Source: an uncultured Rhodospirillales bacterium
GTDB lineage: Bacteria > Pseudomonadota > Alphaproteobacteria > RF32 > CAG-239
NCBI GenBank assembly: GCA_902761715.1
Contig: CACWLK010000001.1
Location: 10,899 to 74,898 of the forward strand
Reading direction: 5' to 3'
DNA length: 64,000 nt
Shown: in pieces, positions 3,407-17,598 of the stretch
Layout: the number at the start of each line of letters is the position of its first letter
How positions within the stretch are numbered: position 1 is the first letter of the stretch
The notes under the pieces: model-generated
The model's input: the letters and a program-made list of their open reading frames with translations, nothing else
Told to the model about the DNA's origin: nothing
The model's database searches: none
Made by a program: the position numbers and the translations under genes

Positions 3407-4391
3407 TTTTCAACTCCATTATAATGCCGTCAACCGCACTCTTTAATGACGCAATAATTTTATCAGCTTTCAAATCTTTGTATATTTGTGAAAAAATTAC
3501 ACATGCCGCATTAAATATTTCTGCTCGTGACTGCCCTATACAAGAATGCTCCAAGCGCTCATTATAACTCATTTTTCTAACATTCTCAATTGCACGATCA
3601 AAGTCTTGAGTTGCAACCACAACACCGTCCGCTCTTGTTCGTTCATAAGGATTCCAATCGTTTACGATATGTGTCAGCCTGAGCGGTGTGCTCGATGTTG
3701 CAACAAAACACAATTTATCTCTATATTTATCCAATTTTGCATCTGCTACAAAACTTTCGGAATATTTATGAATTTCCTCTGCCAGCTTTTCGGCCTTGAC
3801 TGCATCATAATCATTCAAATCAAATTTTTCCGAACTGTTTCTTGCACCCCACGGAATAGAAACCGTATGTAAAATCTTCGGATTAATCTCTTTGGTTGCC
3901 AGCGTAATTTCGGTTGACCCGCCGCCCAAATCATATACAACCACATATTTGACATTTTCATCTTTTACGTTTGCCATTGCCCCAAGCAAATTCAACCGGG
4001 CTTCTTCATATCCGTCAATTACTTCCAAATCAATATTTGCTTGTTGTTTTACTTTGCGCACAAACTCAGCTCCGTTCATCGCCATTCGGCAAGCTGCAGT
4101 TGCCACGGCTCGATACTGTTGCACATTATATTCGTCCATATGCATCTTAAACATACACAAACAATCAATGCCTCGAGCCATAGCCTCATCGGTAAAACAA
4201 TTATTTTTTGACATACCTTCTCCCAGCCGTGTCGGAACAGCACACTTAAACAGCTCATTACCTTTCATATCAGCAATCAGCAAGCGGCACGAATTTGTTC
4301 CCAAATCAATGGCTGCCAGACTTGAATCCCTCACGTCCGTCTCTCCTTTTGTTACGTCTGTAAAAATTATGTCTGCGACCTTTTGTATCAC
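3393..4391 (-). CDS. Ppx/GppA-family phosphatase, short form (paralog 2)
   Basis: AIDLGTNSCRLLIA and VYDLGGGSTEIT actin-like ATPase motifs. There is no C-terminal HD region. The start is uncertain because it overlaps the upstream paralog by 86 nt. Confidence 0.75.
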   Translation of the reverse strand: MIQKVADIIFTDVTKGETDVRDSSLAAIDLGTNSCRLLIADMKGNELFKCAVPTRLGEGMSKNNCFTDEAMARGIDCLCMFKMHMDEYNVQQYRAVATAACRMAMNGAEFVRKVKQQANIDLEVIDGYEEARLNLLGAMANVKDENVKYVVVYDLGGGSTEITLATKEINPKILHTVSIPWGARNSSEKFDLNDYDAVKAEKLAEEIHKYSESFVADAKLDKYRDKLCFVATSSTPLRLTHIVNDWNPYERTRADGVVVATQDFDRAIENVRKMSYNERLEHSCIGQSRAEIFNAACVIFSQIYKDLKADKIIASLKSAVDGIIMELKNGTN

Positions 4392-5382
4392 GATTATGCA
4401 TCATATCAAGCAGCATTCCTTCACGAATTCCTCTATCCGCAACCGTAATTTCCGATACCGGCCAAAAAGAACAAATTCCCTCAATAATCGCACATCCGGC
4501 AATTGTCAAATCAGCTTTTAGTGGACCGATACAGGGGTGTTTTTTACGTCCCTCTGTTCCCATGCGTCTTATTCGAGTAATAGAATGTTCCAAATCTTGT
4601 TTAGTAATCGAAATTCCGTCAACCGCAGAACGATTATAACGTGTCAAATTCAGCTGAATTGCCCCCAAAACCGTTACCGTTCCCGATGTTCCTATAACTT
4701 GAATTTCCTGGTTTTGAATGGCTTCATAAATATGGTATTTTGCCTCAAAATCTTCTAACAATTTGTGAGTGCGTTCAACAATTGTATCATAGGCCAAATT
4801 AGTCATATCTTTGTTTGGAAAAGCCTCTGATACCGTAACCACCCCATACGGCAAAGACACATATCCCTCAATAAAAGTCTTGCCCGTATTGGTAACTCTT
4901 GCCAACGAAATCTCGGTTGATCCGCCACCGATATCAAAAACCATAACTCTTTTCAAATTACGGTTCAGTAGTGGTACACAGCCAACCACAGCGAGTCTTG
5001 CTTCTTCTTGCGACGAAATAATTTCAATATTCAGCCCCGTTTGCTTTTTTACTTCCGCCAAAAAATCCTTGCAGTTATCGGCACGTCTGCAGGCTGCAGT
5101 AGCCACAAACCTTGACCTGTATATCGGAGAATATTCATTGATTACTTCCGAACAGATTTTCAGCGCCCGCACAGTTCTTCTGATTGCATCTCTGCTCAAA
5201 CGATTTTCGTTGATGATACCTTCACCCAAGCGGGTAATACGTGAAAATGTTTCAACAATTCTAAAAGACGTTGGCGTCGGAGTAGCAATAACCAATCGGC
5301 AAGAATTTGTTCCCAAATCTATTGCTGCATAGGTTCGGACATTATCTTCCGTTTTTCTAAATTTATTATACTTTTGCATCAT
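4306..5382 (-). CDS. Ppx/GppA-family phosphatase, short form (paralog 1)
   Basis: AIDLGTNSCRLVIA, VFDIGGGSTEIS and ADRGIREGML motifs, followed by a basic C-terminal tail (GRRHNFYRRNKRRDGREG). Confidence 0.8.
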   Translation of the reverse strand: MMQKYNKFRKTEDNVRTYAAIDLGTNSCRLVIATPTPTSFRIVETFSRITRLGEGIINENRLSRDAIRRTVRALKICSEVINEYSPIYRSRFVATAACRRADNCKDFLAEVKKQTGLNIEIISSQEEARLAVVGCVPLLNRNLKRVMVFDIGGGSTEISLARVTNTGKTFIEGYVSLPYGVVTVSEAFPNKDMTNLAYDTIVERTHKLLEDFEAKYHIYEAIQNQEIQVIGTSGTVTVLGAIQLNLTRYNRSAVDGISITKQDLEHSITRIRRMGTEGRKKHPCIGPLKADLTIAGCAIIEGICSFWPVSEITVADRGIREGMLLDMMHNRDTKGRRHNFYRRNKRRDGREGFKSGSH

Positions 5383-5464
5383 TTGCCATCATTCATACTG
5401 TACAAAATATTCTTGCCATTCTGAACGATTTTTATTGCAAGTGCAAGCTATTTAAACACCGACC

Positions 5465-6580
<1,116 letters not shown>

Positions 6581-6663
6581 TTACATTTCTCTGCCCGAAA
6601 GTATGACACACAAAAAGTTACCAAAATATTAATATTCACACATAAAGAATTTAAAAATCCACA

Positions 6664-6690
6664 ACAAAAAAAGCGTCCCGAAGGACGCTT
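6664..6690 (-). terminator. Rho-independent terminator of the 87-aa gene
   Basis: GCGTCC-CGAA-GGACGC hairpin (6673-6688). The A-run 6664-6672 becomes the T-run on the minus strand. Confidence 0.7.
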
Positions 6691-6699
6691 TTGAAAAAT

Positions 6700-6717
6700 G
6701 AAGAAGAAGAAGAAGAG
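6700..6717. repeat. (GAA)5 purine microsatellite
   Basis: GAAGAAGAAGAAGAAGAG lies between the stop of the 87-aa gene and its terminator. Confidence 0.9.
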
Positions 6718-6728
6718 TATAAATGAGG

Positions 6729-6992
6729 CTACACAGCCATCAGCATTTCCTTAGTAGCGCGGGCCCGAGCGATATTCAGTGTTCTGCGGCGTTCCGAAGA
6801 GCGTGATTTGGTTACCACTCTTACTTTGCCGCCGGAGAAATCACATACCACTTTGCCGACCCGACGACCTTTGATATTTTTCCTTAGTTCATCAGAGATT
6901 CCGAAAGCGCTGACATACTTGTTGATCTTCTCTACTGGGGCAGTTGACATCATGTGCCATTCTTCTGCCATGTTTTTCTTTTTCTGTATCAT
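6729..6992 (-). CDS. hypothetical basic protein, 87 aa (SD-less cassette class)
   Basis: ORF with its own terminator. The leader CAATTAATTATTAAGATA-ATG has no SD. A later Met (MAEEW) is an alternative start. Confidence 0.5.
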   Translation of the reverse strand: MIQKKKNMAEEWHMMSTAPVEKINKYVSAFGISDELRKNIKGRRVGKVVCDFSGGKVRVVTKSRSSERRRTLNIARARATKEMLMAV

Positions 6993-7073
6993 TATCTTAA
7001 TAATTAATTGCGTGAGTATGGTTATCTCATATTTTTAGACAAAAGTCAACAACTTTTTGACAAATTAGACGCA

Positions 7074-7694
7074 TTATTTTATAAGTGCTTGAATCGGCTT
7101 ATAACTTTTTCTGTGTTCGGGAGTGATTCCGTACTTTTTTAACCCCTCAATGTGGCAGGCTGTCCCATAACCGGCATTTTTTTCAAAACCATAATAAGGA
7201 TATTTTTTAGCCATTTCTTTCATGATGCGGTCTCGATAGACTTTTGCCGCAATCGATGCCGCCGCAACCGACATTGATTTTGCATCTCCTTTTATCACAG
7301 TTTTTGTCTTGCATTTAAAGTTATTCGGCGTTCTGTTTCCGTCAATCAATGCAACATCGGGGCATTGAGGCAATTTATCGGTTGCGCGTTTCATTGCCAA
7401 AAATGTAGCCTGCAAAATATTCATTTCATCAATTTCACGGCAACTTGCCTCCCCGATACCTATATATAATTTTCCCTCTGCCTGTTCTCGCAAAAGTTCG
7501 TCATAAAGCATTTCTCGTTTTTTGGCTGACAGTTTTTTGGAATCATCAAGCCCGTCCAACAAAGTCTTTGACAGTTGCTTGTCCAAAATTACCACAGCTC
7601 CGGCCACAACCGGTCCTGCCCATGGTCCGCGCCCCGCCTCATCTATGCCGGCAACTAAACCGCTATACATATTTTCAAGTTCAAAATCAGGCAT
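7074..7694 (-). CDS. rnhB: ribonuclease HII
   Basis: GIDEAGRGPWAGPVVAGAVV motif. I moved the start to ATG 7694 (MPDFELE...), because the track ORF extends upstream. Confidence 0.85.
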   Translation of the reverse strand: MPDFELENMYSGLVAGIDEAGRGPWAGPVVAGAVVILDKQLSKTLLDGLDDSKKLSAKKREMLYDELLREQAEGKLYIGIGEASCREIDEMNILQATFLAMKRATDKLPQCPDVALIDGNRTPNNFKCKTKTVIKGDAKSMSVAAASIAAKVYRDRIMKEMAKKYPYYGFEKNAGYGTACHIEGLKKYGITPEHRKSYKPIQALIK

Positions 7695-7793
7695 ATTCCA
7701 ATCCTCTCTTGTGTATTTTGTACTTTCTGCCAGACCAAAAGTCAAATAAAAAAGCTCCGATTTCTCGGAGCTTTTAACTTGCACAGACCACAA

Positions 7794-8027
7794 TCAGCGA
7801 ATTGCCGGTTCGGTCATATCCTGACTGTTATAACGTTTTTTCATAACATCTGAAAAACGAGAAGCGCCGTCGCTAACGTTTGAAGTCCCTTTTTCAGTTG
7901 TTGTAACTGCTGATTTTGCCGCATTTAATGTTTTATAATACAGAGCCTTCGGTTCAATACCATATCCCCACCAAGCAACCGCAAAAATCAAAGCGATTAA
8001 TGTTGCAAAAGTAATTAACAATCTCAT
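7794..8027 (-). CDS. small membrane-anchored protein, 77 aa
   Basis: N-terminal TM segment MRLLITFATLIALIFAVAWWGYG, with GGGGAGGA upstream. Confidence 0.5.
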   Translation of the reverse strand: MRLLITFATLIALIFAVAWWGYGIEPKALYYKTLNAAKSAVTTTEKGTSNVSDGASRFSDVMKKRYNSQDMTEPAIR

Positions 8028-8086
8028 TATTCAATCCTCCCCAAATTATTTACGGATATTATTAAACCTTAAAATTAAAAAAATCT

Positions 8087-9574
8087 TTAATTTTTTACCT
8101 GTTTTATTCTTAAATTATTATCATACACATTTGCGGCTTTTCTAATCAAGCGGTCGCCTATCCCGTATTTAATCTTAAGCATATTTCGTGCTCCGATTTT
8201 ACGATCCAGAAACATTTGTGTTTTTCCGATTATATTGGCCAACACCCTGCCCGTAACCGGAATATCGATTTTTATATACTTATCCAACTTTACAAACTTA
8301 TATTTTCCGGTATAGGGATTATAAACTCGGAAACTGTAAAGCATTGAGCGCATCAATACATATTCTTTGCGCAACTCATCAAGTCCTTTTGCCACCGAAC
8401 TGAAACGCAGCAACCACTGCAACCTTTGTACAAGCTTTTCATAATGAGCATCTAAATTATAATCTGTCCAATATTTGAGTTTGGTATTCACCACAAAATC
8501 CAGATTACTCAAAAGCCGGTTTCGTTCCGCCTCACTGCGAGACGCCAACACTGCAAAACATTGTTCTTTCCTCGCCAATGCATCCCAATCATGATCATGC
8601 CAATATCGATCAATTCTGTCCAACGTTACTGCCAAATGCGCCGAACGCTCGTCCTCCACCAATATATAATAGCAATCAGCGGCCAGCAACGCCTTTGAAT
8701 TAGGTTTCAAGCATCTGTTTTCAAGCAATATCCTGTTTTTAAGATGATGATATTCGTGCACCATAACACTGCGATAGTCAGCATGCGTATCACGCAGCTC
8801 TGCATATGTTTTATAAAGACACGAGTACATAATTTGTGATTTTCTGTCTTTGCAAAATTTTCTGATAACTTCCACAAAAATCTCATTCGGCGTTTTTTCT
8901 CTGACAAACCACGATTTTTTGGCTTTCATACGCCGGTTCAACTCGTTGTCTATTCGTTTAATATAGTTCCAATCATCGGAATTAAAAATGTAACAATATT
9001 CCCCGATCATAATTTCCGAGCCGTGTGCCGAAATTTTTTTAATCTCGGATGTTGCCGGCGATATATCCACCCGATACATCACGCTGTTCCACTTAACAAA
9101 GTTTGACAGTACCGAGCGTTTAATCGAAATTCCCGTCTTTTTAAGCAACGGAGGAATATCTTTATCTCTCAAAACCACGGGGTCAGTTAGCACACCGGCC
9201 ACTTCCTTAGGCGCCGGATATGCAAATGCATTCTTAAAATTGCCGGAATTTATTATTCTTATTTCAAATTCATCTTCAAGTTGTTCGCGACCGACTTCCG
9301 TTTCGATAAAAAACACCAAATCCTGTGTCGCCTTAAAATCAACATCTGCCGCAATACGTTCAAAATTTTCCAGAGTATAAAATTGTAACGAATTTTGTGC
9401 TGCATATTGCTGACCGTTAAGTTTAGAGATTTTTTTCATGGTTGACCACGCATTGTAACGACAAAACTCATCAAACGAAATCTCGGCGAGTTTAGCCGCA
9501 GTCCATGCGTCAACTTCTCTTTTTACCACAAAAAAACTGCCATTTTTTCCGGCAACGACGTCCATCTCATACAC
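8087..9574 (-). CDS. hypothetical 495-aa protein with HExxH motif
   Basis: Long ORF. HEYHH is encoded at nt 8744-8758. I recognise no other family signature. Confidence 0.6.
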   Translation of the reverse strand: MYEMDVVAGKNGSFFVVKREVDAWTAAKLAEISFDEFCRYNAWSTMKKISKLNGQQYAAQNSLQFYTLENFERIAADVDFKATQDLVFFIETEVGREQLEDEFEIRIINSGNFKNAFAYPAPKEVAGVLTDPVVLRDKDIPPLLKKTGISIKRSVLSNFVKWNSVMYRVDISPATSEIKKISAHGSEIMIGEYCYIFNSDDWNYIKRIDNELNRRMKAKKSWFVREKTPNEIFVEVIRKFCKDRKSQIMYSCLYKTYAELRDTHADYRSVMVHEYHHLKNRILLENRCLKPNSKALLAADCYYILVEDERSAHLAVTLDRIDRYWHDHDWDALARKEQCFAVLASRSEAERNRLLSNLDFVVNTKLKYWTDYNLDAHYEKLVQRLQWLLRFSSVAKGLDELRKEYVLMRSMLYSFRVYNPYTGKYKFVKLDKYIKIDIPVTGRVLANIIGKTQMFLDRKIGARNMLKIKYGIGDRLIRKAANVYDNNLRIKQVKN

Positions 9575-9699
9575 CCTGTTGATACTACTAAAAATTTAGT
9601 AAATAAATTTAAAAACCGCAACAACTTATATTTTGGTATCCACAAGCCTTGACTATTAAAACATTATATGTTACTTTCCCCGAACTAATCCCTATTATT

Positions 9700-10506
9700 A
9701 TGAACGTACAACTATTAAAAGACTTCCGTTGTGCACAACTTGTCCACGACACGTTATGTGCAAAGACCGATTGTGTTGATGAAAACGAACTCTGTGTCTG
9801 TGGCTATATCGTCTGCATAGACGATGACCCGACATCTGCTCTGTATGCTGCCCGTCTTGCCAAACTTCATAAAGATTTGTATTCCGTTATGCCCCGTATT
9901 TTATGTGTCGGCGGCAACGGATTACTTAGCAAGTGGACACACCATACGACTGAGGGAAAACTCTTGGCAATATGCTGTCAGCGACTTGGTATTCCGTCCT
10001 CCAAAATCACCATTTTGGATCATGGAACCAACACCGGCGCCAACGTGCAAGAAATTGCCGCCTTTGTCAATGGAGATCCCGCTACCGTACTTTTTGTCGC
10101 CACCAAACGGCTATCATTACGTCTTCAGCTGACCGTACAAGCCCAAGCTCCCAAGCTTATGGCTCGTTACTATGTTATTGATGAAAGCGTTTTTGAAGCC
10201 TGCAAATGGATGAACGGCAAACGTATCGGACAAGGGCAAATGATGCTTCACGAGCTCGCCTCAATCTTAAACCGCTGTGATGCTTACGCCGGAACTTTTC
10301 AGGCTCCTATCCCCTTTGAAGTGCCTGCCGAAGTCCGCCAAGCAGCAAATCATCTTGCCGCCAAATATCGTCTGAAACTGCCGCATAAAAACTTGCGGTC
10401 TTTCGGACAATACATATGGCTGCTCTGCGGTTTAATTCGCAATCGTCGATTAATTGAATTTGATCTTAATCACTACATCAAGTTCTGCAAAAGATCTGGT
10501 GCCTAG
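9700..10506 (+). CDS. DUF218 (YdcF/ElyC-like) domain protein
   Basis: ILCVGGNG...TEGKLLAICCQRLGIPSSKITILDHGTNTGANV resembles the DUF218 core. I chose ATG 9700 over the TTG at 9649 listed in the track. Confidence 0.55.
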   Translation: MNVQLLKDFRCAQLVHDTLCAKTDCVDENELCVCGYIVCIDDDPTSALYAARLAKLHKDLYSVMPRILCVGGNGLLSKWTHHTTEGKLLAICCQRLGIPSSKITILDHGTNTGANVQEIAAFVNGDPATVLFVATKRLSLRLQLTVQAQAPKLMARYYVIDESVFEACKWMNGKRIGQGQMMLHELASILNRCDAYAGTFQAPIPFEVPAEVRQAANHLAAKYRLKLPHKNLRSFGQYIWLLCGLIRNRRLIEFDLNHYIKFCKRSGA

Positions 10507-10519
10507 TGGTATCTCAAAC

Positions 10520-10548
10520 AAAAAAGACCGCCCAAAGCGGTCTTTTTG
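10520..10548. terminator. bidirectional Rho-independent terminator
   Basis: AGACCGC-CCAAA-GCGGTCT hairpin flanked by an A-run and a T-run, between convergent genes. Confidence 0.75.
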
Positions 10549-10552
10549 CTTA

Positions 10553-12079
10553 TCAATAATCTTGCAGGTTCATCAGACTATAGTCTTTATCGGCATTGGC
10601 CCAATCTTGCAGTCTGTTTCTGCTTAACACCGGAATCCGCTCCAACTCTGATTTTATCTCCGGATTTTCATTAATCAAAGCCAATCCTGCCAAAACAAAC
10701 GGGTGGATTACTTCGCCGATATCAAGCCCCATTGGTTTATAATCTGTACCTTCCACCACTTGTTTGTTATCTTGTCTTATTTGTTCTAAAAGTGCGTTTT
10801 CAGCTTCTTCTCTTACTTTTGCTGAAGCCAAAGCCTCAACAAATGCCATAGTATATTTTTCTTTTGCGGTTCCGCTTCCCATATATGCGGACATTTCCTT
10901 GGGATATTTTGCCAAAGCTTTGCCCTCAAACCGAGGCAGTGTGCTTACCAATTCCTCTGCCAAAACCACCATTTTGGCAACTTTTTCGGCCTGACGGCAC
11001 AACTCATACTGATATCGTGTCCTCATGTCATAATCGCCGATCAATGGTTGGCGTGCCCTTTCCAACAAAATTGCTGCCACATCAAAAGCTTGTTCGTCAA
11101 TTGCAAAGCTTTTGTTGCACAAAATTCGATTAAGTTTGCGGTCATATACTGCCGCCGCCGGCAAATCATTTTTCAACAATCCTTGTGTTTCACCAAAATG
11201 CAGGTTCATACTTGCTGCACTTTCCATAACCTCATTCCACATTTTGCTTGCCGAAGCATAGGCCTTAAACGCATCTTCTTTTTCGGTAGAGAAAGGCACT
11301 TCATCATAATTTACTTTTTTATACAAATTCAGCTTATAAACTGACTTAAATTTTTCGACCTTAGCATCCAACGACTTGCGCTCATTTGCGGTTCCTCGGG
11401 CGATTTCATTTTGCCTTTCATCAATTTTGGCCAATCTTGTACCTATTTCCTGAATACGTTGTTTTTGCCCTTGAATATTATAATATCTCTCAATATCCTG
11501 TTCGATTTCTTCTTTACTCAGGCTGACATCAAAGCGGGCTCTCACACCCTTAAATTCATTTTTGCGTTGTTCAAACAAACTTCTGAATTTTTTGAGTTTC
11601 GGCATTGCCAACAATTGCATAGCCTTTGATTTTAGACCGTCCGGCGTATTCTTCTCCCACGGAAAAACTTCATCATCGTTTTTATGAGCCAGGAACAAAT
11701 TCAAAAACGAGCGGGCATCATACAAATATTTATCCGGCAACACCGCCAACAGCTCGCCCTTAAAATCGGAGATTTTGTGCAACATATCAAATTCGCTTTG
11801 TTGTTGACGTTCATTATCGACGACCTCACGTTCCAAATCTTGCAGTTCTTTACGCAACGGCTCCAACTCAGCGACCAATTTTTTCTGCTCGTCATGATAA
11901 AATTCCAAACGAGCCGCTTCTGACTGCGTAACCACAAAAGCAGTCTGAGCTCTGTCCCAATCCGGCTCTTTCAAAAAATCCCGATTAGCGACAATATAGT
12001 CCATATCAGCGCTTGAAATTCCGTCATTTACCTGATGTTGCAAAACACCTGATGTTTGTCCAAAATTATTTTCAGCCAT
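10553..12079 (-). CDS. hypothetical coiled-coil protein, about 508 aa
   Basis: Long ORF rich in E/K/Q heptad-like sequence. I placed the start at ATG 12079 (MAENNF), preceded by GAGGAG. The track start is 12109. Confidence 0.6.
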   Translation of the reverse strand: MAENNFGQTSGVLQHQVNDGISSADMDYIVANRDFLKEPDWDRAQTAFVVTQSEAARLEFYHDEQKKLVAELEPLRKELQDLEREVVDNERQQQSEFDMLHKISDFKGELLAVLPDKYLYDARSFLNLFLAHKNDDEVFPWEKNTPDGLKSKAMQLLAMPKLKKFRSLFEQRKNEFKGVRARFDVSLSKEEIEQDIERYYNIQGQKQRIQEIGTRLAKIDERQNEIARGTANERKSLDAKVEKFKSVYKLNLYKKVNYDEVPFSTEKEDAFKAYASASKMWNEVMESAASMNLHFGETQGLLKNDLPAAAVYDRKLNRILCNKSFAIDEQAFDVAAILLERARQPLIGDYDMRTRYQYELCRQAEKVAKMVVLAEELVSTLPRFEGKALAKYPKEMSAYMGSGTAKEKYTMAFVEALASAKVREEAENALLEQIRQDNKQVVEGTDYKPMGLDIGEVIHPFVLAGLALINENPEIKSELERIPVLSRNRLQDWANADKDYSLMNLQDY

Positions 12080-12152
12080 CTTCAAAATCTCCTCATTGTT
12101 TTTAATCATACAAACAATAAATTTGTTTGCAACAACAAAAAGAAAGACATTT

Positions 12153-13244
12153 TTATTTTACTTTTTTCCACCAATGAGAAAACTCTTGTTTTTCGTGCAA
12201 ATTGACCACCTCGCCTATTTGCGGCGTCATCAAATGATAATCCTCGCCTTCGCTCAGTTTTGCCACTCTGTCGAGCGGATCATACCACGCATGATTACAG
12301 ATTGAAAACTTTGAGTTATGCACCGGCAACACTCTTTCTGCCTTCAAATCTCTTGCGGCCTGTACAATTTCGTCCGGCTGTTCGTGGATATATTTCCAAT
12401 TTTTATCATATTGACCGGCCTCCAAAATTGCCAAATCGACACCGCCGAATTTTTCCCCGATTTGCGCATAATGAACATCATACCCTGAATCACCGCCGAT
12501 ATAAACTTTATAGTTCGGAGTACTCAGCATAAACGACGCCCACAGACTGCGGCTTCTCCACAAGCTCCGGCCCGAAAAATGTCTTGCCGGCAAACACATA
12601 ATTTCCGCCCCATCGAGAGCAAGATTTTCGCCCCAATCGAGTTCGGAGATTTTTTCGTTTTCCACTCCCCAGTAGCGCAAATGCGACCCCACGCCCAGTC
12701 CGGTAATAAAATGCCCGACTTGCGGCGCAATTTTCTTAATTGTTTCATAGTCCAAATGGTCATAATGGTCGTGAGTAATAACCATATAATCGACTTCCGG
12801 CATATCGTCGGCACTATATACATTTGTCCCCTTAAAAGGCACAACATTATACGGTATCGGCGAGGCATTGTTGCTAAACACCGGATCAATCAAATACTTT
12901 TTGCCGCCGAGTTGGATATAATACGACGAATGCCCGAACCACACCAAAACATCTTGATTTTCAGCCAAAGACTTCAGGTTTGCCTTAATTGTCGGAATAG
13001 GCTTGTTTGGTTTTGTATCCGGATGATTACCAAAATAAAAATCGCTCATTGTCGCCACAAAATTGCCCTCGCCTGTCATCACCGGCGTATTATGCAGATT
13101 TTGAAAACGTCCGTTTTTATAGTTTGGCGATTTAACAATCTTTTGCATGCTGATTTTGTCCGGCAAATGCCCAAACTTTGGCAGATTGATATACCCGACA
13201 AACACCGCCGTTAAAACAGCTAAAATTATAATACTCATTTTCAT
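12153..13244 (-). CDS. membrane-anchored MBL-fold metallo-hydrolase
   Basis: VITHDHYDHLD (HxHxDH) motif, an N-terminal TM segment, and AAGGGAGA as SD. Confidence 0.75.
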   Translation of the reverse strand: MKMSIIILAVLTAVFVGYINLPKFGHLPDKISMQKIVKSPNYKNGRFQNLHNTPVMTGEGNFVATMSDFYFGNHPDTKPNKPIPTIKANLKSLAENQDVLVWFGHSSYYIQLGGKKYLIDPVFSNNASPIPYNVVPFKGTNVYSADDMPEVDYMVITHDHYDHLDYETIKKIAPQVGHFITGLGVGSHLRYWGVENEKISELDWGENLALDGAEIMCLPARHFSGRSLWRSRSLWASFMLSTPNYKVYIGGDSGYDVHYAQIGEKFGGVDLAILEAGQYDKNWKYIHEQPDEIVQAARDLKAERVLPVHNSKFSICNHAWYDPLDRVAKLSEGEDYHLMTPQIGEVVNLHEKQEFSHWWKKVK

Positions 13245-13355
13245 AATTTTCTCCCTTTACCGGCAAAAATATCATCAAAAAAATCATTTTGACAAGCAAA
13301 AAATCTCCCCACCCCACACACCGCCAGATAGGAAGGGAAAACAACTTATAAGCAT

Positions 13356-14453
13356 CTATTTTGAAGTATTTCTTCTCAAAAATTCTTTTCTACATTTGTC
13401 ATAAACATCATCATTTGTTTCAAGTAACAAAATAGGTTTTAATGTACCGTATTGAAAAAAATGCTCCAATGATGAAGGCAGATTGTATATTTTTTCAACA
13501 TAATATTCAAAACTATTTCTAATTTGATAGTATATTATATCTTGATGATAATTTGTATTAAGATAATCTATACTCTTTCCTTTATCAGAAAGACTATCCC
13601 CAAATTTTACCACATTTATATCCTCAAAATCATCTTTATAATAAATCCAACAATACTCTGGTTGCACAATGAAATACCTACCATCATCAATATGACAACA
13701 ATACAATTCCATTAAAATGGTTTCATGGTATTTAAGATAAAGATTATCTTTACAAGTGATGCCAATAGACGTACTCCAATCATAAGTTCCTATATCTTGT
13801 ATATGATGAAATTTTATTGTAAATTCAGGAAAATCACTATAGTAATACACAGAATCTCCATCTATAGTGATAGACTGCCATTTTTCTGTATCCTGAATAT
13901 ATATAGATAATCTATCGAGGGGATTTAATGTTAAGCCAAAACGCTCTTGCCACATTTGAGCAATTTGATATTCTGAAGCCGTATTATTAATAGGCGTATT
14001 TACAGCACCATCTCTGGTATATATAACTCCAGCTCTAATAATTCTTTCTTTATTTTCTTTTCCAATAACTTTATCTTTTAATAAAAAATAAGGTTTATTT
14101 CTCATGTTTTTGATTATAATGACATCAACGCATCCTTCTTTTGTTTTTAATGATCGGATAAACGTTGTTGGTTTGATATTAAAATTCGAGTTTTGTATTA
14201 AATTGTGAATATTTTCTTCTGATTTTCGATTTGCATCATTTGATACATCTTTTATTTTCTTTGTTTTGTTCTCAATCCCAATTATTAAATACTTATCAGA
14301 ATCAGTACAAGAATTTGCCATACATAAAATATCATAAATTAACTCACCTGCATTGTGATACCATTCTTGTTTAAAGTCTAAATAGTCAGATTCTTCATGC
14401 GTTAAAAGACTATATAAATTTTCATCATTTGTGTATTGAGAATCATTTGTCAT
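13356..14453 (-). CDS. Schlafen/AlbA_2-domain protein with unassigned C-terminal half
   Basis: The N-terminus EESDYLDFKQEW...ANSCTDSDKYLIIGIENKT resembles the AlbA_2 (divergent AAA, Schlafen-type) fold. The ATG overlaps the upstream stop as ATGA. The gene is very AT-rich. Confidence 0.6.
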   Translation of the reverse strand: MTNDSQYTNDENLYSLLTHEESDYLDFKQEWYHNAGELIYDILCMANSCTDSDKYLIIGIENKTKKIKDVSNDANRKSEENIHNLIQNSNFNIKPTTFIRSLKTKEGCVDVIIIKNMRNKPYFLLKDKVIGKENKERIIRAGVIYTRDGAVNTPINNTASEYQIAQMWQERFGLTLNPLDRLSIYIQDTEKWQSITIDGDSVYYYSDFPEFTIKFHHIQDIGTYDWSTSIGITCKDNLYLKYHETILMELYCCHIDDGRYFIVQPEYCWIYYKDDFEDINVVKFGDSLSDKGKSIDYLNTNYHQDIIYYQIRNSFEYYVEKIYNLPSSLEHFFQYGTLKPILLLETNDDVYDKCRKEFLRRNTSK

Positions 14454-17400
14454 TCTACTCCTGCCTCATCAATTTGTTGCATGAGTTGGTTGGTTAGATA
14501 TAGAGCATTGATAATTTTTGCATAATGTTTAATATCATCAAAAGAAAGTTCCTTGTCTTTGCGGTCTTTGAGCCATTTTTGCGCCGGTTGGTAACCACCG
14601 ATATAAAAGTTCCAAGCGACTTCCGGAACGTTATCAAAATATTGCGTATCGTTGATATATACTTTACCTTCCGCAAAAACCAGTTTTGTTACAATGTTAT
14701 CGCCGCTTACCGGATAGCCGATGGCTAATGTATTCAGTTTATCGCTCTCAAGTAGATGAATCTTACGGATTTGCGAACCTAAATCAACCAATTTCCAGAA
14801 TTTTGCTTTATCTGCTGGGTAAGGCACTTTCGGAAAATCAATTTTTAAGAACTCTTTATAGGTTTCACGATATTTGGGTGAATGTAACACGGCATAAATG
14901 TAATCTAATACATCAATCGGAGCAAAAGTTTCCGGTTCTTCCGTTTTTTCTTCGGTAAACTTCAATTTTAACCCATCAGCAAACTTTTGAATAATTTTGC
15001 CATCAAAATTAGGATGCCGTGAATTATCTAAATCTTCATAGACATAAAGAGGAAAACCATAGCTAATTTCGCTTGTTTTGTTTGAAACTATTGAGGATTC
15101 AAAGCAATTATCACAAATAAAGACATGATGATATTCAGGAAAGGCCTTAAATTGTTTACACAACAGTAATCCTAAATTATCTCTATTGAGAAAATGTTTC
15201 ATAACTGCTTCACGTGGGCGTTCAATATAGGTGGTATCATAATAAACATATTTGTTATCAAATGGACGATATGTAACTGACTGTATTTTACTACTATCAG
15301 CCTCAATATTATAGTAAGATGCGACAGAAGATGAAAGTTCATCAACTGTTTCTTTTACAAGTATACTGTCTTTTGCCGTAACAATTCCAACATTATTTAA
15401 TTTAAATAATTCCGTAATACCAAAACCTTTATCATATTTCTTGGATAGTCCAAAGTCTTTCTTTACAAAGAAATAATATGGTGCTTGATGTTCCAATTTA
15501 TTGAAATCTATACCATTCAAGCTGTGTTCTGCCAAAAACTCGTACTTATTTTCTCTTTTACCATAAAGGTCACAATGATAGACCTCAGCAAGCTGTCCTT
15601 TTCTTTTGGCATTTGTTTTGATAAACAAATTGATGGAAACACCTTGCTGTATATCAAATACATTCTCATCTTTTGAGCCATCGGGACAAGTTTCTTTCTT
15701 TTTGGCGTTACCGTGTAAATCCAAAATATAGATTTTATCAAAAGTATTTAATAAATGCCAACGCATTCCTCTGAAAGTCGGATTATCTAAGAAACTATGA
15801 TTGTTAATATAAGCTAAAATTCCTGTATTGTTTTTTTCAATGAATTGTTCGGCATAGCGGATAAATTTAACATAGTCATCATTAATCCACTTAGGGTTCT
15901 TTTCTTGTAATTTTCCTCCCGTTGGCTCTTGCTTATAAACATCTATCAGATTTGTTATCCATTCACCTTTATTTGAACTTTCGCCACTATACGGTGGATT
16001 TCCTAATACAACCATTACCGGAACATCACGTTTAACTTCATTAGCCTCTTCTGCTTCTTGGGATAGCCAACTGGCGAACAAAGTTCCAGAGTCTGGGTGT
16101 GGTTCTTCTAAACTATTTGTCAGATAAACTTTCAAGCGGTCGTTTTGTGTTGCTTTATAACCGGTTTCTTTCAAAATCAAATCTAGCTTCAAATGTGCCA
16201 TGGCATAAGATGCCATTAAAATCTCAAAACCATGTAATCTCGGTAGTAAATGTTGTTCTACATAGCTTGACCACATTCCCTGCATTGGTATAAATTTCTC
16301 ATGAATTTGGCGAATAACTTCGGCTAAAAATGTTCCGGTTCCGGTGGCAGGGTCTAATATTTGAACACGATGTACTTCTTTTTCTTCTTTTTTAAATTTA
16401 TCCTTACTTTCATTTCGGAGAGTAATTTTTGTTTTTGATGTATCTGCTAATCCATCAGCCAAACCAAATTCATTCTTTAATATGTCGTCAACAGCCCGCA
16501 CAATAAAATTAACTACCGGTTGCGGTGTATACCAAACTCCGCGAGATTTACGAAGCTTTGGGTCATATTCGCTCAAAAAGGTTTCATAAAAGTGAATTAT
16601 CGGGTCTTGCGTTTTGGTTGCTTTACCAAAATCTTTCAAAATATCGTGCAAATTAACAGCAACAAAAACATCGGCTAAATCGTCAACAATCCATTTAATA
16701 CGGTCATCAAGTGTCGGACCTGCGATATAACTGAATAGATTTCGCAAAAAAGGATTAGACTTCGGTATGCACTCACAAGCCTCTTGTCTGGAAAAATTTT
16801 CTAATGATGTATCATTCAAACGTCCGGCGAACATACCATAGGCAATAGTTTGTGCGTAAACATCTGCAAATTCTTCTTTAGATATATCACTAATCAATAT
16901 CTTTTGAAATGCAGTCATTTGGTCTTGAAGGGTTCGGTTATCATAACTGTTATCATTACTATTTAAGGCATTTTTTATAACATCAGCCAACAATCTGGCT
17001 TTTCCTGCCATCATTTTAGCCAACTTTGAAGCAGAATGTATTGTCTGTCCTCTATAAGCACAGAAATTAACAATTAAGTCATTAAATTCTTGAAAACGCT
17101 CTGTATTGGCGACAACTTTGCCGTTTTCTATATGACCAATACGAACTGTTGTAACTTTTTCTCCATCCCGATAAAAACGAAATTCAAGATAGTTCGTAAT
17201 AATAAGATTGTTTAAACTGTTACGATAACGGTCAAATTGCTCTTTATGATTTTTATTATCTAAATCATCATCAAGGTCTTTAGCTTCAATATATCCAAGT
17301 GGAATATTATTTTTGGTAATAACATAATCAGGTGCTCCACACGAGATACGAGCAGGCTCATTAGTCGCAATAATGCCTGTTACGAGCTTTTCTATTAAGG

Positions 17401-17488
17401 TTTGTAAGTCTCCGCGATATGAATGTTCCCGCGATATTCCGGTTTTATATCTTTTGTTAATTTCGTTAATATAGTCCGCTATAGGCAT
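14450..17488 (-). CDS. single-chain Type IIG-like restriction-modification enzyme (nuclease + gamma-class N6-adenine methylase + TRD)
   Basis: D54-X13-E68-A-K70 (GAPDYVITKNNIPLGYIEAKD), then ILDPATGTGTFL (motif I), then LGNPPYSG (motif IV). The C-terminal region resembles the Type ISP/YeeA-like specificity end. Confidence 0.8.
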   Translation of the reverse strand: MPIADYINEINKRYKTGISREHSYRGDLQTLIEKLVTGIIATNEPARISCGAPDYVITKNNIPLGYIEAKDLDDDLDNKNHKEQFDRYRNSLNNLIITNYLEFRFYRDGEKVTTVRIGHIENGKVVANTERFQEFNDLIVNFCAYRGQTIHSASKLAKMMAGKARLLADVIKNALNSNDNSYDNRTLQDQMTAFQKILISDISKEEFADVYAQTIAYGMFAGRLNDTSLENFSRQEACECIPKSNPFLRNLFSYIAGPTLDDRIKWIVDDLADVFVAVNLHDILKDFGKATKTQDPIIHFYETFLSEYDPKLRKSRGVWYTPQPVVNFIVRAVDDILKNEFGLADGLADTSKTKITLRNESKDKFKKEEKEVHRVQILDPATGTGTFLAEVIRQIHEKFIPMQGMWSSYVEQHLLPRLHGFEILMASYAMAHLKLDLILKETGYKATQNDRLKVYLTNSLEEPHPDSGTLFASWLSQEAEEANEVKRDVPVMVVLGNPPYSGESSNKGEWITNLIDVYKQEPTGGKLQEKNPKWINDDYVKFIRYAEQFIEKNNTGILAYINNHSFLDNPTFRGMRWHLLNTFDKIYILDLHGNAKKKETCPDGSKDENVFDIQQGVSINLFIKTNAKRKGQLAEVYHCDLYGKRENKYEFLAEHSLNGIDFNKLEHQAPYYFFVKKDFGLSKKYDKGFGITELFKLNNVGIVTAKDSILVKETVDELSSSVASYYNIEADSSKIQSVTYRPFDNKYVYYDTTYIERPREAVMKHFLNRDNLGLLLCKQFKAFPEYHHVFICDNCFESSIVSNKTSEISYGFPLYVYEDLDNSRHPNFDGKIIQKFADGLKLKFTEEKTEEPETFAPIDVLDYIYAVLHSPKYRETYKEFLKIDFPKVPYPADKAKFWKLVDLGSQIRKIHLLESDKLNTLAIGYPVSGDNIVTKLVFAEGKVYINDTQYFDNVPEVAWNFYIGGYQPAQKWLKDRKDKELSFDDIKHYAKIINALYLTNQLMQQIDEAGVE

Positions 17489-17598
17489 TGTATTTCCTTT
17501 TCGTTATCTATTATGCCCGGATTTTATCCTAATTCCCCTTAAAATCAAGTTAATTCTCCCTCCCACTATATTTTTCCCCACCTGCTCAAAAAAAATCC

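Follow-up and report, generated by a model that had tools for sequence, protein, structure and literature searches.

This locus, an AT-rich pair of overlapping genes in an uncultured gut Rhodospirillales bacterium, raises the question of whether a Type IIG restriction-modification (R-M) enzyme and the small Schlafen-type protein encoded behind it form one dedicated defence module or two separate anti-phage genes in a shared operon. An initial annotation of the window (the whole 64-kb stretch of DNA that was analysed) favoured the former, suggesting that the small protein could be a sensor, effector or regulator that makes this a two-component module.

A strain-variable cassette in a conserved slot

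13336..17559, 4224 bp, no strand: strain-variable AT-rich defence cassette, between an MBL-hydrolase gene and a flavodoxin operon
14450..17488, minus strand: single-chain Type IIG R-M enzyme, 1012 aa (PADLOC, Pfam, solved structures)
13356..14453, minus strand: prokaryotic Schlafen (pSlfn) gene, 365 aa, PDC-S50, predicted phage-activated RNase

The two minus-strand ORFs exist as first described, and the hand-counted GC of about 27% and about 35% agrees with whole-gene values of 0.271 (365-aa gene) and 0.347 (1012-aa gene). The 4224-nt segment has a GC of 0.327 against a mean of 0.418 (sd 0.014, minimum 0.379) for same-size segments elsewhere in the 64 kb, which makes it the strongest compositional outlier of the window and bears out the suspicion that the pair is compositionally foreign. 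GC3 is 0.183 in the Schlafen gene and 0.270 in the Type IIG gene, versus 0.36–0.50 in ten neighbouring genes, and the difference between the two suggests that they have different histories. The flanking genes are indeed unrelated: an MBL-fold hydrolase and a flavodoxin/FMN-reductase/aldo-keto-reductase operon, neither of them defence-related.

The borders of the cassette are established here. In the sister strain L089 the flanks are 98% identical, up to 17560 and from 13335 onward, and a 3.1-kb BcgI-like R-M pair takes the place of the cassette interior. Since L089 holds a different R-M cassette between the same flanks, the slot is best read as a strain-variable defence hotspot. No direct repeats were found at the cassette junctions.

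The Type IIG enzyme

17279..17329, minus strand: PD-(D/E)xK nuclease motif D54...E68-A-K70, positions confirmed
16325..16360, minus strand: methyltransferase motif I ILDPATGTGTFL, residues 377-388, AdoMet binding (D379, P380, G383, T384 and G385 invariant)
15989..16000, minus strand: methyltransferase motif IV NPPY, residues 497-500, catalytic for N6-adenine methylation (N497, P498, P499 and Y500 invariant)
14477..15307, minus strand: Type_ISP_C target-recognition region, residues 728-1004 (PF18135, 7.9e-73)

The large protein had been taken for a single-chain gamma-class Type IIG enzyme with a Type ISP-like C-terminal end, and its invariant motifs, profile matches and structural relatives all agree with this. 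PADLOC returns REase_MTase_IIG (PDLC03610, 1208 bits), Pfam returns Type_ISP_C, N6_Mtase, MmeI_Mtase and Eco57I, and the closest solved structures are DrdV (7lo5, 3.9e-38), LlaBIII and LlaGI. Every motif quoted for either protein sits at the residues first given for it, here including YRPFDNKYVYYD (740-751), HSPKYRETY (869-877) and GGYQPAQKWLKDR (964-976). D54, E68 and K70 do not vary among 13 relatives, the most distant at 28% identity, and Pfam HSDR_N reaches 24.5 bits over residues 52-108, just under its cut-off of 25.1. A block at about aa 660-810 that varies between relatives overlaps the Type_ISP_C region; protein identity drops to 54-69% at residues 701-800, and nucleotide homology is broken at about 15055-15519.

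The nearest known systems are DrdV and the MmeI-family Type IIG/IIL enzymes together with the methyltransferase/TRD half of Type ISP enzymes (LlaGI, 5ffj; LlaBIII, 4xqk). With these the protein has in common the order nuclease, helical linker, N6-adenine methyltransferase (motif I before IV) and C-terminal TRD, as well as having no separate M or S gene; the Type_ISP_C domain it shares with LlaGI and LlaBIII. No helicase domain was found in it; at 1012 aa, it lacks the ~500-aa SF2 helicase/translocase of true Type ISP enzymes (1406-1578 aa). Strict MmeI-family membership was rejected, as MmeI_N, MmeI_hel and MmeI_TRD are absent and the methyltransferase core alone matches, weakly. Judged by its sequence, nothing is missing from the 1012-aa protein as a Type IIG enzyme of predicted activity: it has a nuclease, a gamma-class methyltransferase and a Type_ISP_C specificity domain.

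The Schlafen-type protein

13926..14453, minus strand: N-terminal Schlafen/AlbA_2-fold nuclease domain, residues 1-176 (Foldseek)
14370..14393, minus strand: Ex4DxK motif E21-S-D-Y-L-D26-F-K28, catalytic signature of Schlafen RNases (alignment)
13359..13925, minus strand: C-terminal alpha/beta domain, residues 177-365, candidate sensor/regulatory part (domain model)

An AlbA_2/Schlafen-type N-terminal fold had been proposed for the small protein, and we recover it in an AlphaFold model (pLDDT 91.7), for which Foldseek matches the N-terminal domain to DIP2311 (3lmm), SLFN13-N (5yd0), SLFN11 (7zel) and SLFN5-N (7cux) at a probability of 0.98-1.0. The precomputed PF04326 (SLFN_AlbA_2) annotation is carried by this exact protein and 49 of 53 homologues. 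In our own hmmscan the Pfam AlbA_2 model gave no match to the protein even at E up to 10, so the case for a Schlafen assignment is made by fold, motif, precomputed annotation and homologues. The motifs EESDYLDFKQEW (20-31) and IIGIENKT (57-64) are in place, and all 38 aligned family members have the E, D and K of Ex4DxK. Ex4DxK is the catalytic signature of bacterial Schlafen tRNases validated in 2026; the same paper defines the motif and reports that E15A/D20A abolishes defence by RorSlfn5 (PMC13056530). On sequence and model, we predict that the 365-aa protein is a bacterial Schlafen-type tRNA nuclease.

The C-terminal part, left unassigned in the initial annotation, is modelled with confidence (pLDDT 93.5) and resembles no entry of PDB or BFVD (best E 0.12 and 0.07). 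In a profile search with this domain, a ~170-aa N-terminus precedes it in nearly all matches listed and the first ~100 positions alone match in most of them. A divergence gradient is seen, with the distal ~90 residues the most variable.

The closest known systems are the pSlfn nucleases such as RorSlfn5 and EcoSlfn7 (Perez Taboada et al., Nat Microbiol 2026, PMC13056530). Like these, the protein is the product of a single gene of similar layout in a defence locus, with Ex4(E/D)xK near the N-terminus of its Schlafen/AlbA_2 nuclease (E21/D26/K28 here; E15/D20 in RorSlfn5), about 190 extra C-terminal residues where the pSlfn sensor domain sits, and homologues better conserved at the N-terminus than at the C-terminus. 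Its C-terminal domain, unlike theirs, is not the pSlfn5 Ig-like beta-sandwich, nor DUF262, HisKinase or HTH, and would join the 'unannotated fusion' group (17% of pSlfns; PMC13056530). The protein also matches PADLOC family PDC-S50 (1.2e-72, residues 10-274), a single-gene 'phage defence candidate' nominated through guilt-by-embedding, with predicted function only (Payne et al., 2024 preprint). Some PDC-S50 members are embedded in R-M, BREX or DISARM loci, resembling the arrangement here, and this counts against reading the two genes as an independent stack; the underlying screen took in Type I R-M, BREX and DISARM, not Type IIG (Payne et al., 2024 preprint). In contrast to PDC-S50, whose profile match ends at residue 274, the last ~90 residues here are lineage-specific.

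Could the small protein instead be a DNA-binding regulator, of the controller type or resembling the AlbA nucleoid proteins, that adjusts how strongly the Type IIG gene is expressed, or a trapped housekeeping protein without a role in defence? AlbA-superfamily folds include nucleic-acid binders, weak ALBA matches were seen (E 1.0-1.8), NCBI names a distant homologue (P0046) 'helix-turn-helix domain-containing protein', and 30% of pSlfn genes lie away from known defence genes (PMC13056530). However, no HTH or other DNA-binding Pfam domain was found in the protein, its nuclease triad is the invariant one described above, PADLOC places it in a defence-candidate family, and most loci of the family are without any R-M gene. 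Gene order is atypical too: a C-protein gene is usually found ahead of, or overlapping, the gene for the nuclease it regulates, and this one follows the Type IIG gene. We regard this as the least probable explanation.

Type IIG genes are often phase-variable or inactivated, and this general point is all that would favour one or both genes being decaying remnants in a non-functional cassette. Against this, neither ORF is shortened in comparison with its homologues (at least 120 for the Type IIG enzyme, among the matches listed) and all catalytic residues are intact. Seven sequencing samples yielded 7 contigs that encode an identical Schlafen protein, with the same gene upstream wherever the contig reaches that far. 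Decay is therefore very improbable.

Organization of the probable operon

14450..14453, minus strand: ATGA stop/start overlap, 4 nt (TGA 14452-14450, ATG 14453-14451)
14458-14462, minus strand: AGGAG Shine-Dalgarno, 4 nt upstream of the Schlafen ATG
17521..17548, minus strand: candidate sigma-70-like promoter TTGATT-16-TAAAAT, within the cassette and 33 nt ahead of the Type IIG start codon
13298..13335, minus strand: terminator-like hairpin followed by U6, just 3′ of the Schlafen gene, in flanking sequence shared between strains

The junction of the two ORFs reads ...GGAGTAGAATGACAA. Co-translation had been proposed from the ATGA overlap. The AGGAG precedes the Schlafen ATG, and no terminator-like site was found at the junction. 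The hairpin behind the Schlafen gene folds at -22.5 kcal/mol over 87 nt (z = -2.4), and its sequence is kept in L089. The promoter candidate is a consensus match only, of a kind no commoner in the region than in shuffled sequence. The two genes are very probably co-transcribed as one unit and translationally coupled. Such tight coupling is also expected of a functional pair, an observation that counts against independence of the two genes. The overlap most likely reflects compact modular packing of defence genes and is not a sign of physical partnership.

Genomic neighbourhoods of the two families

Conserved synteny of the two families is essentially absent. On the Type IIG side, nucleotide homology with every close relative stops exactly at the stop codon, 14450, and in relatives at 43-91% identity the corresponding 3′ position is empty or taken by unrelated genes: those at 78-81% have no codirectional gene downstream, and others are followed by PDC-S42, a C5 methylase, an LmuB-like ATPase, a second Type IIG, an AriA/HEC-03B-like ATPase, cll or unknown membrane-like proteins. 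Because these neighbours vary or are absent and homology ends at the stop codon, the Type IIG gene appears autonomous. On the Schlafen side, none of the five closest independent relatives (73, 70, 59, 58 and 48% identity) has a Type IIG neighbour; they adjoin other defence genes (Type I HsdR with AAA_15, KAP NTPase, GmrSD) or stand alone. A Type IIG gene is directly adjacent at 3 of 58 family loci, each time of a different lineage, and within 10 kb at 5 of 62. Neighbours across the 58 loci are heterogeneous, housekeeping genes included; the second ring consists mostly of ABC/OLD-type ATPases and not of R-M genes, and plasmid copies are mostly solitary. Published pSlfn systems act as single genes (PMC13056530). 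Taken together, these features suggest that the Schlafen gene too is autonomous.

A dedicated two-component module is thus unsupported, since Type IIG adjacency is not conserved on either side and L089 carries another R-M cassette in this slot. A functionally coupled module, in which the Schlafen protein would be silenced by the Type IIG enzyme or sense it, and would fire on phage inhibition of restriction or on restriction-made DNA ends as a guard or backup, still deserves weighing. Its established precedent is PrrC-EcoprrI, where PrrC, an anticodon nuclease, is embedded in a Type Ic R-M operon; by analogy, the predicted situation here would also be a latent RNA-cutting suicide enzyme in an operon with R-M. 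The translational coupling and single promoter/terminator layout fit such a module. Three further Type IIG lineages adjoin the family (L018, L026 and L019), two of them upstream and codirectional (gaps of 69 nt in L018 and 180 nt in L026), one member adjoins a methyltransferase operon, possibly Type II R-M, on pLPE-70K, and another a type I-C CRISPR locus. This recurrent proximity to DNA-targeting immunity counts against independence, as does the R-M-associated 'Cluster 4' (Nat Commun 2026, PMC13462974), which, compared by description only, likewise joins a Schlafen domain to a C-terminal domain of unknown function and is speculated to sense DNA-cleavage structures.

However, PrrC is hardly ever found outside Type I R-M loci (Payne et al., 2024 preprint), while the Schlafen family is mostly without R-M; adjacency is a minority state among the sampled relatives, unlike in 'Cluster 4'. 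PrrC also differs in its ABC-ATPase N-domain and nuclease fold. The partners at other loci come from unrelated Type IIG lineages (Type_ISP_C, MmeI and Eco57I types), which argues against a specific protein-protein interface, and within this one Type IIG lineage a wide variety of unrelated genes occupies the junction. We therefore consider a coupled module unlikely. A PrrC-like link, kept in view because these Schlafens repeatedly adjoin R-M and CRISPR loci, as the literature also notes, is a minority possibility, and a looser functional tie may exist. Should the two genes cooperate, PrrC-EcoprrI would be the mechanistic template.

Proposed function

The segment 13336-17559 is probably a horizontally acquired, strain-variable cassette in a hotspot, with one operon stacking two self-sufficient anti-phage genes. 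Under this stacked arrangement, the Type IIG methyltransferase (motifs I and IV) would mark the host's own DNA at an asymmetric site, for which the C-terminal Type_ISP_C domain provides recognition, and the N-terminal PD-ExK nuclease would cut incoming unmodified DNA. The Schlafen Ex4DxK nuclease domain may be kept off by default and released when the C-terminal domain detects a sign of infection; by cutting tRNA, or other RNA, it would then stop translation, a mechanism demonstrated for RorSlfn5. Co-expression would follow from the ATGA overlap, and the outcome would be layered immunity, with DNA restriction first and an RNA-targeting, abortive-type backup behind it. Both genes are of known anti-phage kinds, and the cassette is a new member of those kinds.

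The cassette and its site

Two genes on the minus strand fill an AT-rich cassette that lies between an MBL-hydrolase gene and a flavodoxin operon in an uncultured Rhodospirillales. NCBI gives this same name to a protein at least 90% identical to the hydrolase.

Genes of the cassette
14450-17488, minus strand: Type IIG ORF, 1012 aa (large protein)
13356-14453, minus strand: Schlafen ORF, 365 aa (small protein)

Both ORFs and their overlap are as the initial annotation had described them, and all the motifs that it quoted were found at the residues it named. At the junction, GGAGTAGAATGACAA, the stop codon of the enzyme gene (TGA, 14452-14450) and the start codon of the small gene (ATG, 14453-14451) overlap as ATGA, and an AGGAG lies 4 bases 5′ of the small-gene ATG. 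Within the cassette, a sigma-70-like site (17548-17521) precedes the enzyme gene, nothing resembling a terminator was found between the two genes, and a hairpin followed by U6 (13335-13298) is located just past the Schlafen gene, within the conserved flank. As judged from these signals, the two genes likely form one transcription unit. Matches in the promoter scans were no more numerous than in shuffled sequence and no internal promoter is therefore claimed for the small gene. A pseudogene state of the cassette genes was considered and rejected as highly improbable.

The suspicion that the pair is compositionally foreign was confirmed once GC was computed: the 4.2-kb segment has a GC of 0.327 versus a mean of 0.418 (sd 0.014, minimum 0.379) over windows of equal length from the rest of the 64 kb. 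The small gene has a GC of 0.271 and a GC3 of 0.183, and the large gene 0.347 and 0.270, while the ten genes around the cassette range from 0.39-0.46 in GC and 0.36-0.50 in GC3. In two sister strains (L089 and L090), the flanks are 98% identical to the window up to 17560 and from 13335 onward, and the same slot (L089 4812-7909) holds a different AT-rich cassette (GC 0.30) which encodes, in a BcgI-like arrangement, a 590-aa REase_MTase_IIG-type fusion together with a Type II specificity subunit of 352 aa. Since the flanks are conserved and the interior is replaced, the variable segment corresponds to window 13336-17559, and the site is a strain-variable defence hotspot that swaps whole cassettes. 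The cassette borders show no direct repeats, att-like sites, integrase or transposase, and an integrative element was rejected on this basis. The sequence points to cassette exchange by homologous recombination via the conserved flanks, a mode of exchange that is typical of defence hotspots.

A second strain-variable segment (window 9566-12132) adjoins the defence slot. Two ORFs, 9649-10506 (DUF218) and 10553-12109 (518 aa, no Pfam or PADLOC match), are missing from sister strain L089, in which similarity resumes over window 9565-9003 at just 72% nucleotide identity, inside ORF 8087-9574 (495 aa, also no matches). The 495-aa and 518-aa proteins share no mutual similarity. On the minus strand at window ~5465-6559 there is an N6_N4_Mtase gene that carries a RAMA domain and appears to stand alone, a call inferred from the precomputed annotation of a contig (L088) that is 99.99% identical to window 4153-13325.

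The Type IIG enzyme

Judged by its domains and motifs, the large protein is a Type IIG enzyme, complete in a single chain, whose specificity domain is Type ISP-like and whose activities are predicted. It matches the PADLOC Type IIG profile REase_MTase_IIG (PDLC03610) with 1208 bits and, in Pfam, Type_ISP_C (7.9e-73, residues 728-1004), N6_Mtase, MmeI_Mtase (33.9 bits) and Eco57I, all above cut-offs; an N-terminal HSDR_N match falls 0.6 bit under its cut-off. In an alignment of about 12-13 relatives, down to 28% identity, the PD-(D/E)xK residues D54, E68 and K70 (D54...E68-A-K70) are invariant, as are motif I at 377-388 (D379-P380...G383-T384-G385) and motif IV, NPPY (N497-P498-P499-Y500). Motif I, of the FxGxG type, precedes motif IV, which is the order of gamma-class N6-adenine methyltransferases. 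The target-recognition domain is built into the protein with no separate S or M subunit, and the cassette carries no other R-M gene. Residues ~660-810 form the most variable block among close relatives, which fits a specificity region.

By sequence, the solved structures nearest to it are those of the Type IIL enzyme DrdV (7lo5, 3.9e-38) and of LlaBIII and LlaGI, the latter two matched only in their methyltransferase/TRD halves (chain residues 898-1172 and 671-1110). Unlike these Type ISP enzymes, in which an SF2 helicase-like ATPase/translocase separates nuclease from methyltransferase, the large protein has no Pfam match to ResIII, DEAD or Helicase_C, and at 1012 aa versus 1406-1578 it is 400-560 residues shorter. 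A Type ISP identity was rejected for these reasons. The initial annotation had proposed a single-chain gamma-class Type IIG enzyme of the MmeI type with a Type ISP-like specificity end. Profiles and motifs uphold this description except for the MmeI type, which in the strict sense was rejected because MmeI_N, MmeI_hel and MmeI_TRD are absent in Pfam and only MmeI_Mtase matches. The other MmeI domains do occur in a true MmeI-type enzyme that neighbors a relative of the small protein (L026).

The Schlafen protein

The small protein is predicted to be a Schlafen RNase with a sensor-type C-terminal domain. It matches the PADLOC profile PDC-S50 (E 1.2e-72, 243 bits) over residues 10-274, aligned to profile positions 6-273 of 387. 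Its AlphaFold model, built with 38 homologues, has a pLDDT of 91.7, and in a Foldseek search the N-terminal half of this model matches DIP2311 and the SLFN13, SLFN11 and SLFN5 nuclease domains at a probability of 0.98-1.0. The protein carries E21-SDYL-D26-F-K28, of which E21, D26 and K28 are invariant in 38/38 aligned family members. Ex4(E/D)xK is the catalytic signature of prokaryotic Schlafen nucleases (pSlfns), and in RorSlfn5 the E15A/D20A substitutions abolished both defence and tRNA cleavage (Perez Taboada et al., Nat Microbiol 2026, PMC13056530). The AlbA_2/Schlafen call made from the sequence alone was thus borne out by profile, fold and invariant Ex4DxK. Precomputed annotation assigns PF04326 (SLFN_AlbA_2) to exactly this protein and to 49/53 detected homologues; our own hmmscan of the small protein did not match PF04326 even at E up to 10 and yielded nothing but a chance match to Cep192. 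Searching PDB sequences with a family profile produced chance lipocalin matches alone (E 0.26 and above), and the Schlafen link therefore rests on fold and motif. A literature search under the name PDC-S50 returned no paper. NCBI calls members of the family (e.g. the 59% relative P0004 and plasmid matches H1-H15) "ATP-binding protein" with no detectable ATPase domain; the name is misleading and probably stems from routine annotation of AlbA_2 proteins.

Residues 177-365 form a separate alpha/beta domain that is confident also when modelled alone (pLDDT 93.5). Among solved structures its best PDB match is gC1qR (E 0.12, probability 0.25), no Ig-like or integrin-like structural match was found in the PDB, and viral models (BFVD) gave nothing significant (best E 0.07). 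The RorSlfn5-like pSlfn5 subclass was rejected for the small protein because its C-terminal domain, by structure search, lacks an Ig-like beta-sandwich. On its modelled architecture, the protein would belong to the "unannotated fusion" class, to which 17% of pSlfns were assigned (PMC13056530). An exhaustive profile search with the C-terminal domain yielded 385 cluster representatives; in nearly all matches listed, the domain match starts at ~residue 160-190 of ~350-400-residue proteins, and in most of them only the first ~100 profile positions match. Identity among homologues drops from the N-terminal core to the distal C-terminus (53, 44 and 31% in the relative P0006), mirroring the effector/sensor divergence described for pSlfn5 (PMC13056530). 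The C-terminal domain may act as a sensor. The small protein has no match among 50,697 phage records and, together with the lack of a viral-model match for its C-terminal domain, this led us to reject a phage-derived or phage-mimic origin as far as the libraries reach.

A regulatory role for the small protein is very improbable. Controller (C) proteins of R-M systems are small HTH DNA-binding proteins encoded upstream of or overlapping the nuclease gene. At 365 aa, with no HTH domain found in Pfam and with its gene downstream of the enzyme gene, the small protein does not fit this description and the controller reading was rejected.

Genomic neighbors of the two genes

An identical small protein is encoded on seven further contigs, with the same upstream gene wherever the contig extends to it, but these are copies of one locus and therefore not independent evidence. 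A Type IIG neighbor was found in 0/5 of the closest relatives: P0002 (73%) has 371 nt of non-coding sequence upstream with no trace of the enzyme, P0003 (70%) lies behind small ORFs, with a Type I HsdR and an AAA_15 ATPase in the vicinity, P0004 (59%) adjoins a KAP NTPase, P0005 (58%) is preceded by a 171-aa protein without assignment and P0006 (48%) by a GmrSD-type gene. A genome scan using 20 closer sequences gave 62 loci with family members. In the 58 of these that had a callable target gene, a Type IIG gene was immediately adjacent in three, each of a different lineage; within 10 kb the count was 5/62. A tblastn search with the window's enzyme against the 62 loci matched L018 only.

Type IIG genes immediately adjacent to a Schlafen gene
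L018: Type_ISP_C-type Type IIG, upstream, codirectional, gap of 69 nt
L026: MmeI-type Type IIG, upstream, codirectional, gap of 180 nt
L019: Eco57I-type Type IIG, divergent

In L018, a stretch of 31 residues that repeats the C-terminus of the local Type IIG enzyme at 77% identity is present at 14237-14329, 4.5 kb downstream of the gene; an earlier cassette or an exchange of TRDs may have left it behind.

Other neighbors of the Schlafen genes include PDC-S05, PDC-S23, GmrSD, Mrr, RhuM and integrases as well as housekeeping genes (GcvP, LpxC, DAHP synthase), and the second ring of neighbors consists mostly of ABC/OLD-type ATPase defence genes, not R-M. Four of six annotated plasmid contexts have no R-M or CRISPR genes alongside, although one of the four carries a lone, oppositely oriented cytosine methyltransferase gene ~2 kb off. 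On Bacillus thuringiensis plasmid pBTHD521-5 (L122, 5965-7110), a ~33%-identical member is flanked by cas7c and cas2 within a type I-C CRISPR-Cas locus, another immune system that targets DNA. Lactiplantibacillus pentosus plasmid pLPE-70K (L125, 4099-7164) has an apparent three-gene operon of a site-specific DNA methyltransferase, a hypothetical protein and, last, the Schlafen-like gene, with gaps of -1 and 13 nt, which may be a Type II R-M system with a docked Schlafen.

From the enzyme side, every close relative is homologous to the window at the nucleotide level from ~10 nt before the start codon to exactly the stop codon at 14450. A 91% relative (L074 5675-9404) has the same ATGA overlap leading into an unrelated 288-aa membrane-like protein, followed by a 956-aa protein, with no family match, and an 86% relative (L075 8057-8893) has a TAATG overlap with an unrelated 278-aa membrane-like protein, again with no family match. 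The coupled genes at these two loci are candidate new defence genes by guilt-by-association. PDC-S42-like genes, of another PADLOC candidate family, adjoin the 3′ end of the enzyme gene in the 89% and 78% relatives (L092 3621-4601; L095 3546-4571), one of them overlapping the enzyme gene by 14 nt. Relatives at 78-81% (L076-L082) have no codirectional downstream gene and lie in elements with large serine recombinases, which suggests that the enzyme lineage travels on recombinase-mobilised islands. These elements also carry a DUF3768 gene, and a convergent 592-aa gene lies downstream of the enzyme.

The survey was extended to 28 further metagenome loci, of which about half have a closely packed gene downstream of the enzyme relative. 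Across the 37 loci examined overall for downstream ORFs, none of the downstream genes resembles Schlafen, and none are alike among themselves save one identical pair on near-identical contigs (L114/L115). They include PDC-S42 (twice), a C5 methylase, an LmuB-like ATPase, a second Type IIG, an AriA/HEC-03B-like ATPase and "cll", as well as MgsA and GlgE.

Stacked defences or a coupled pair

Synteny was conserved from neither side, and the dedicated two-component defence module that the initial annotation had proposed is not supported. Because neighbors are heterogeneous on both sides, each gene has an evolutionary history of its own and their present pairing is recent and lineage-specific; that the two genes differ in GC3 is consistent with this. 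We consider it probable, if by no means certain, that the operon combines two defences, each working autonomously. The Type IIG enzyme would methylate host DNA at an asymmetric site and cut incoming unmodified DNA. The Schlafen protein would remain inactive until an infection cue is sensed by its C-terminal domain and would then cleave tRNA or other RNA, arresting translation. Through the ATGA coupling, the two genes would be expressed and transferred together.

The strongest competing explanation is that the Schlafen protein and the Type IIG enzyme are functionally linked in a PrrC-like way. The overlap of the two genes is tight and the Schlafen family recurrently, though in a minority of cases, adjoins DNA-targeting immunity. 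The PDC candidates were themselves nominated by "guilt-by-embedding" in R-M/BREX/DISARM loci (Payne et al., 2024 preprint), and R-M-associated Schlafens reported in 2026 have C-terminal domains without assignment that were speculated to sense DNA-cleavage structures (PMC13462974). However, the association is poorly conserved, its R-M partners at other loci come from unrelated lineages, and we regard a link of this kind as unlikely, though worth keeping in view. A more specific form, which we hold to be doubtful, has the Schlafen RNase as a guard docked on the Type IIG enzyme, watching enzyme integrity or DNA-cleavage products, such that phage evasion or inhibition of restriction would trigger translation shut-off. 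More widely, the 3′ end of the Type IIG lineage could be a plug-in site for interchangeable second-line effectors (pSlfn, PDC-S42, AriA-like ATPases, membrane proteins) translationally coupled to first-line R-M. If true, the guard reading would widen the PrrC-like principle to single-chain R-M enzymes and Schlafen nucleases.

Significance

Both genes are of known kinds and the co-occurrence of Schlafen and R-M genes is already in print. What is modestly new is a Schlafen subfamily (PDC-S50) with a confidently folding C-terminal domain that has no fold match and is a candidate phage sensor, a Schlafen gene recently docked onto a Type IIG gene whose 3′ junction acts as a slot for interchangeable genes, and direct evidence of a strain-variable hotspot at this site. 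Differing coupled genes recur at the 3′ junction of this Type IIG lineage, and several of them, without family match, are candidate defence genes. The locus illustrates how immunity is layered in nature: in an uncultured alphaproteobacterium of the human gut, DNA restriction and a predicted RNA-targeting abortive effector share one operon. It also provides a test case for the published yet unexplained association of Schlafen proteins with R-M. If the two proteins cooperated, the PrrC guard principle would reach a family shared with the human antiviral SLFN proteins.
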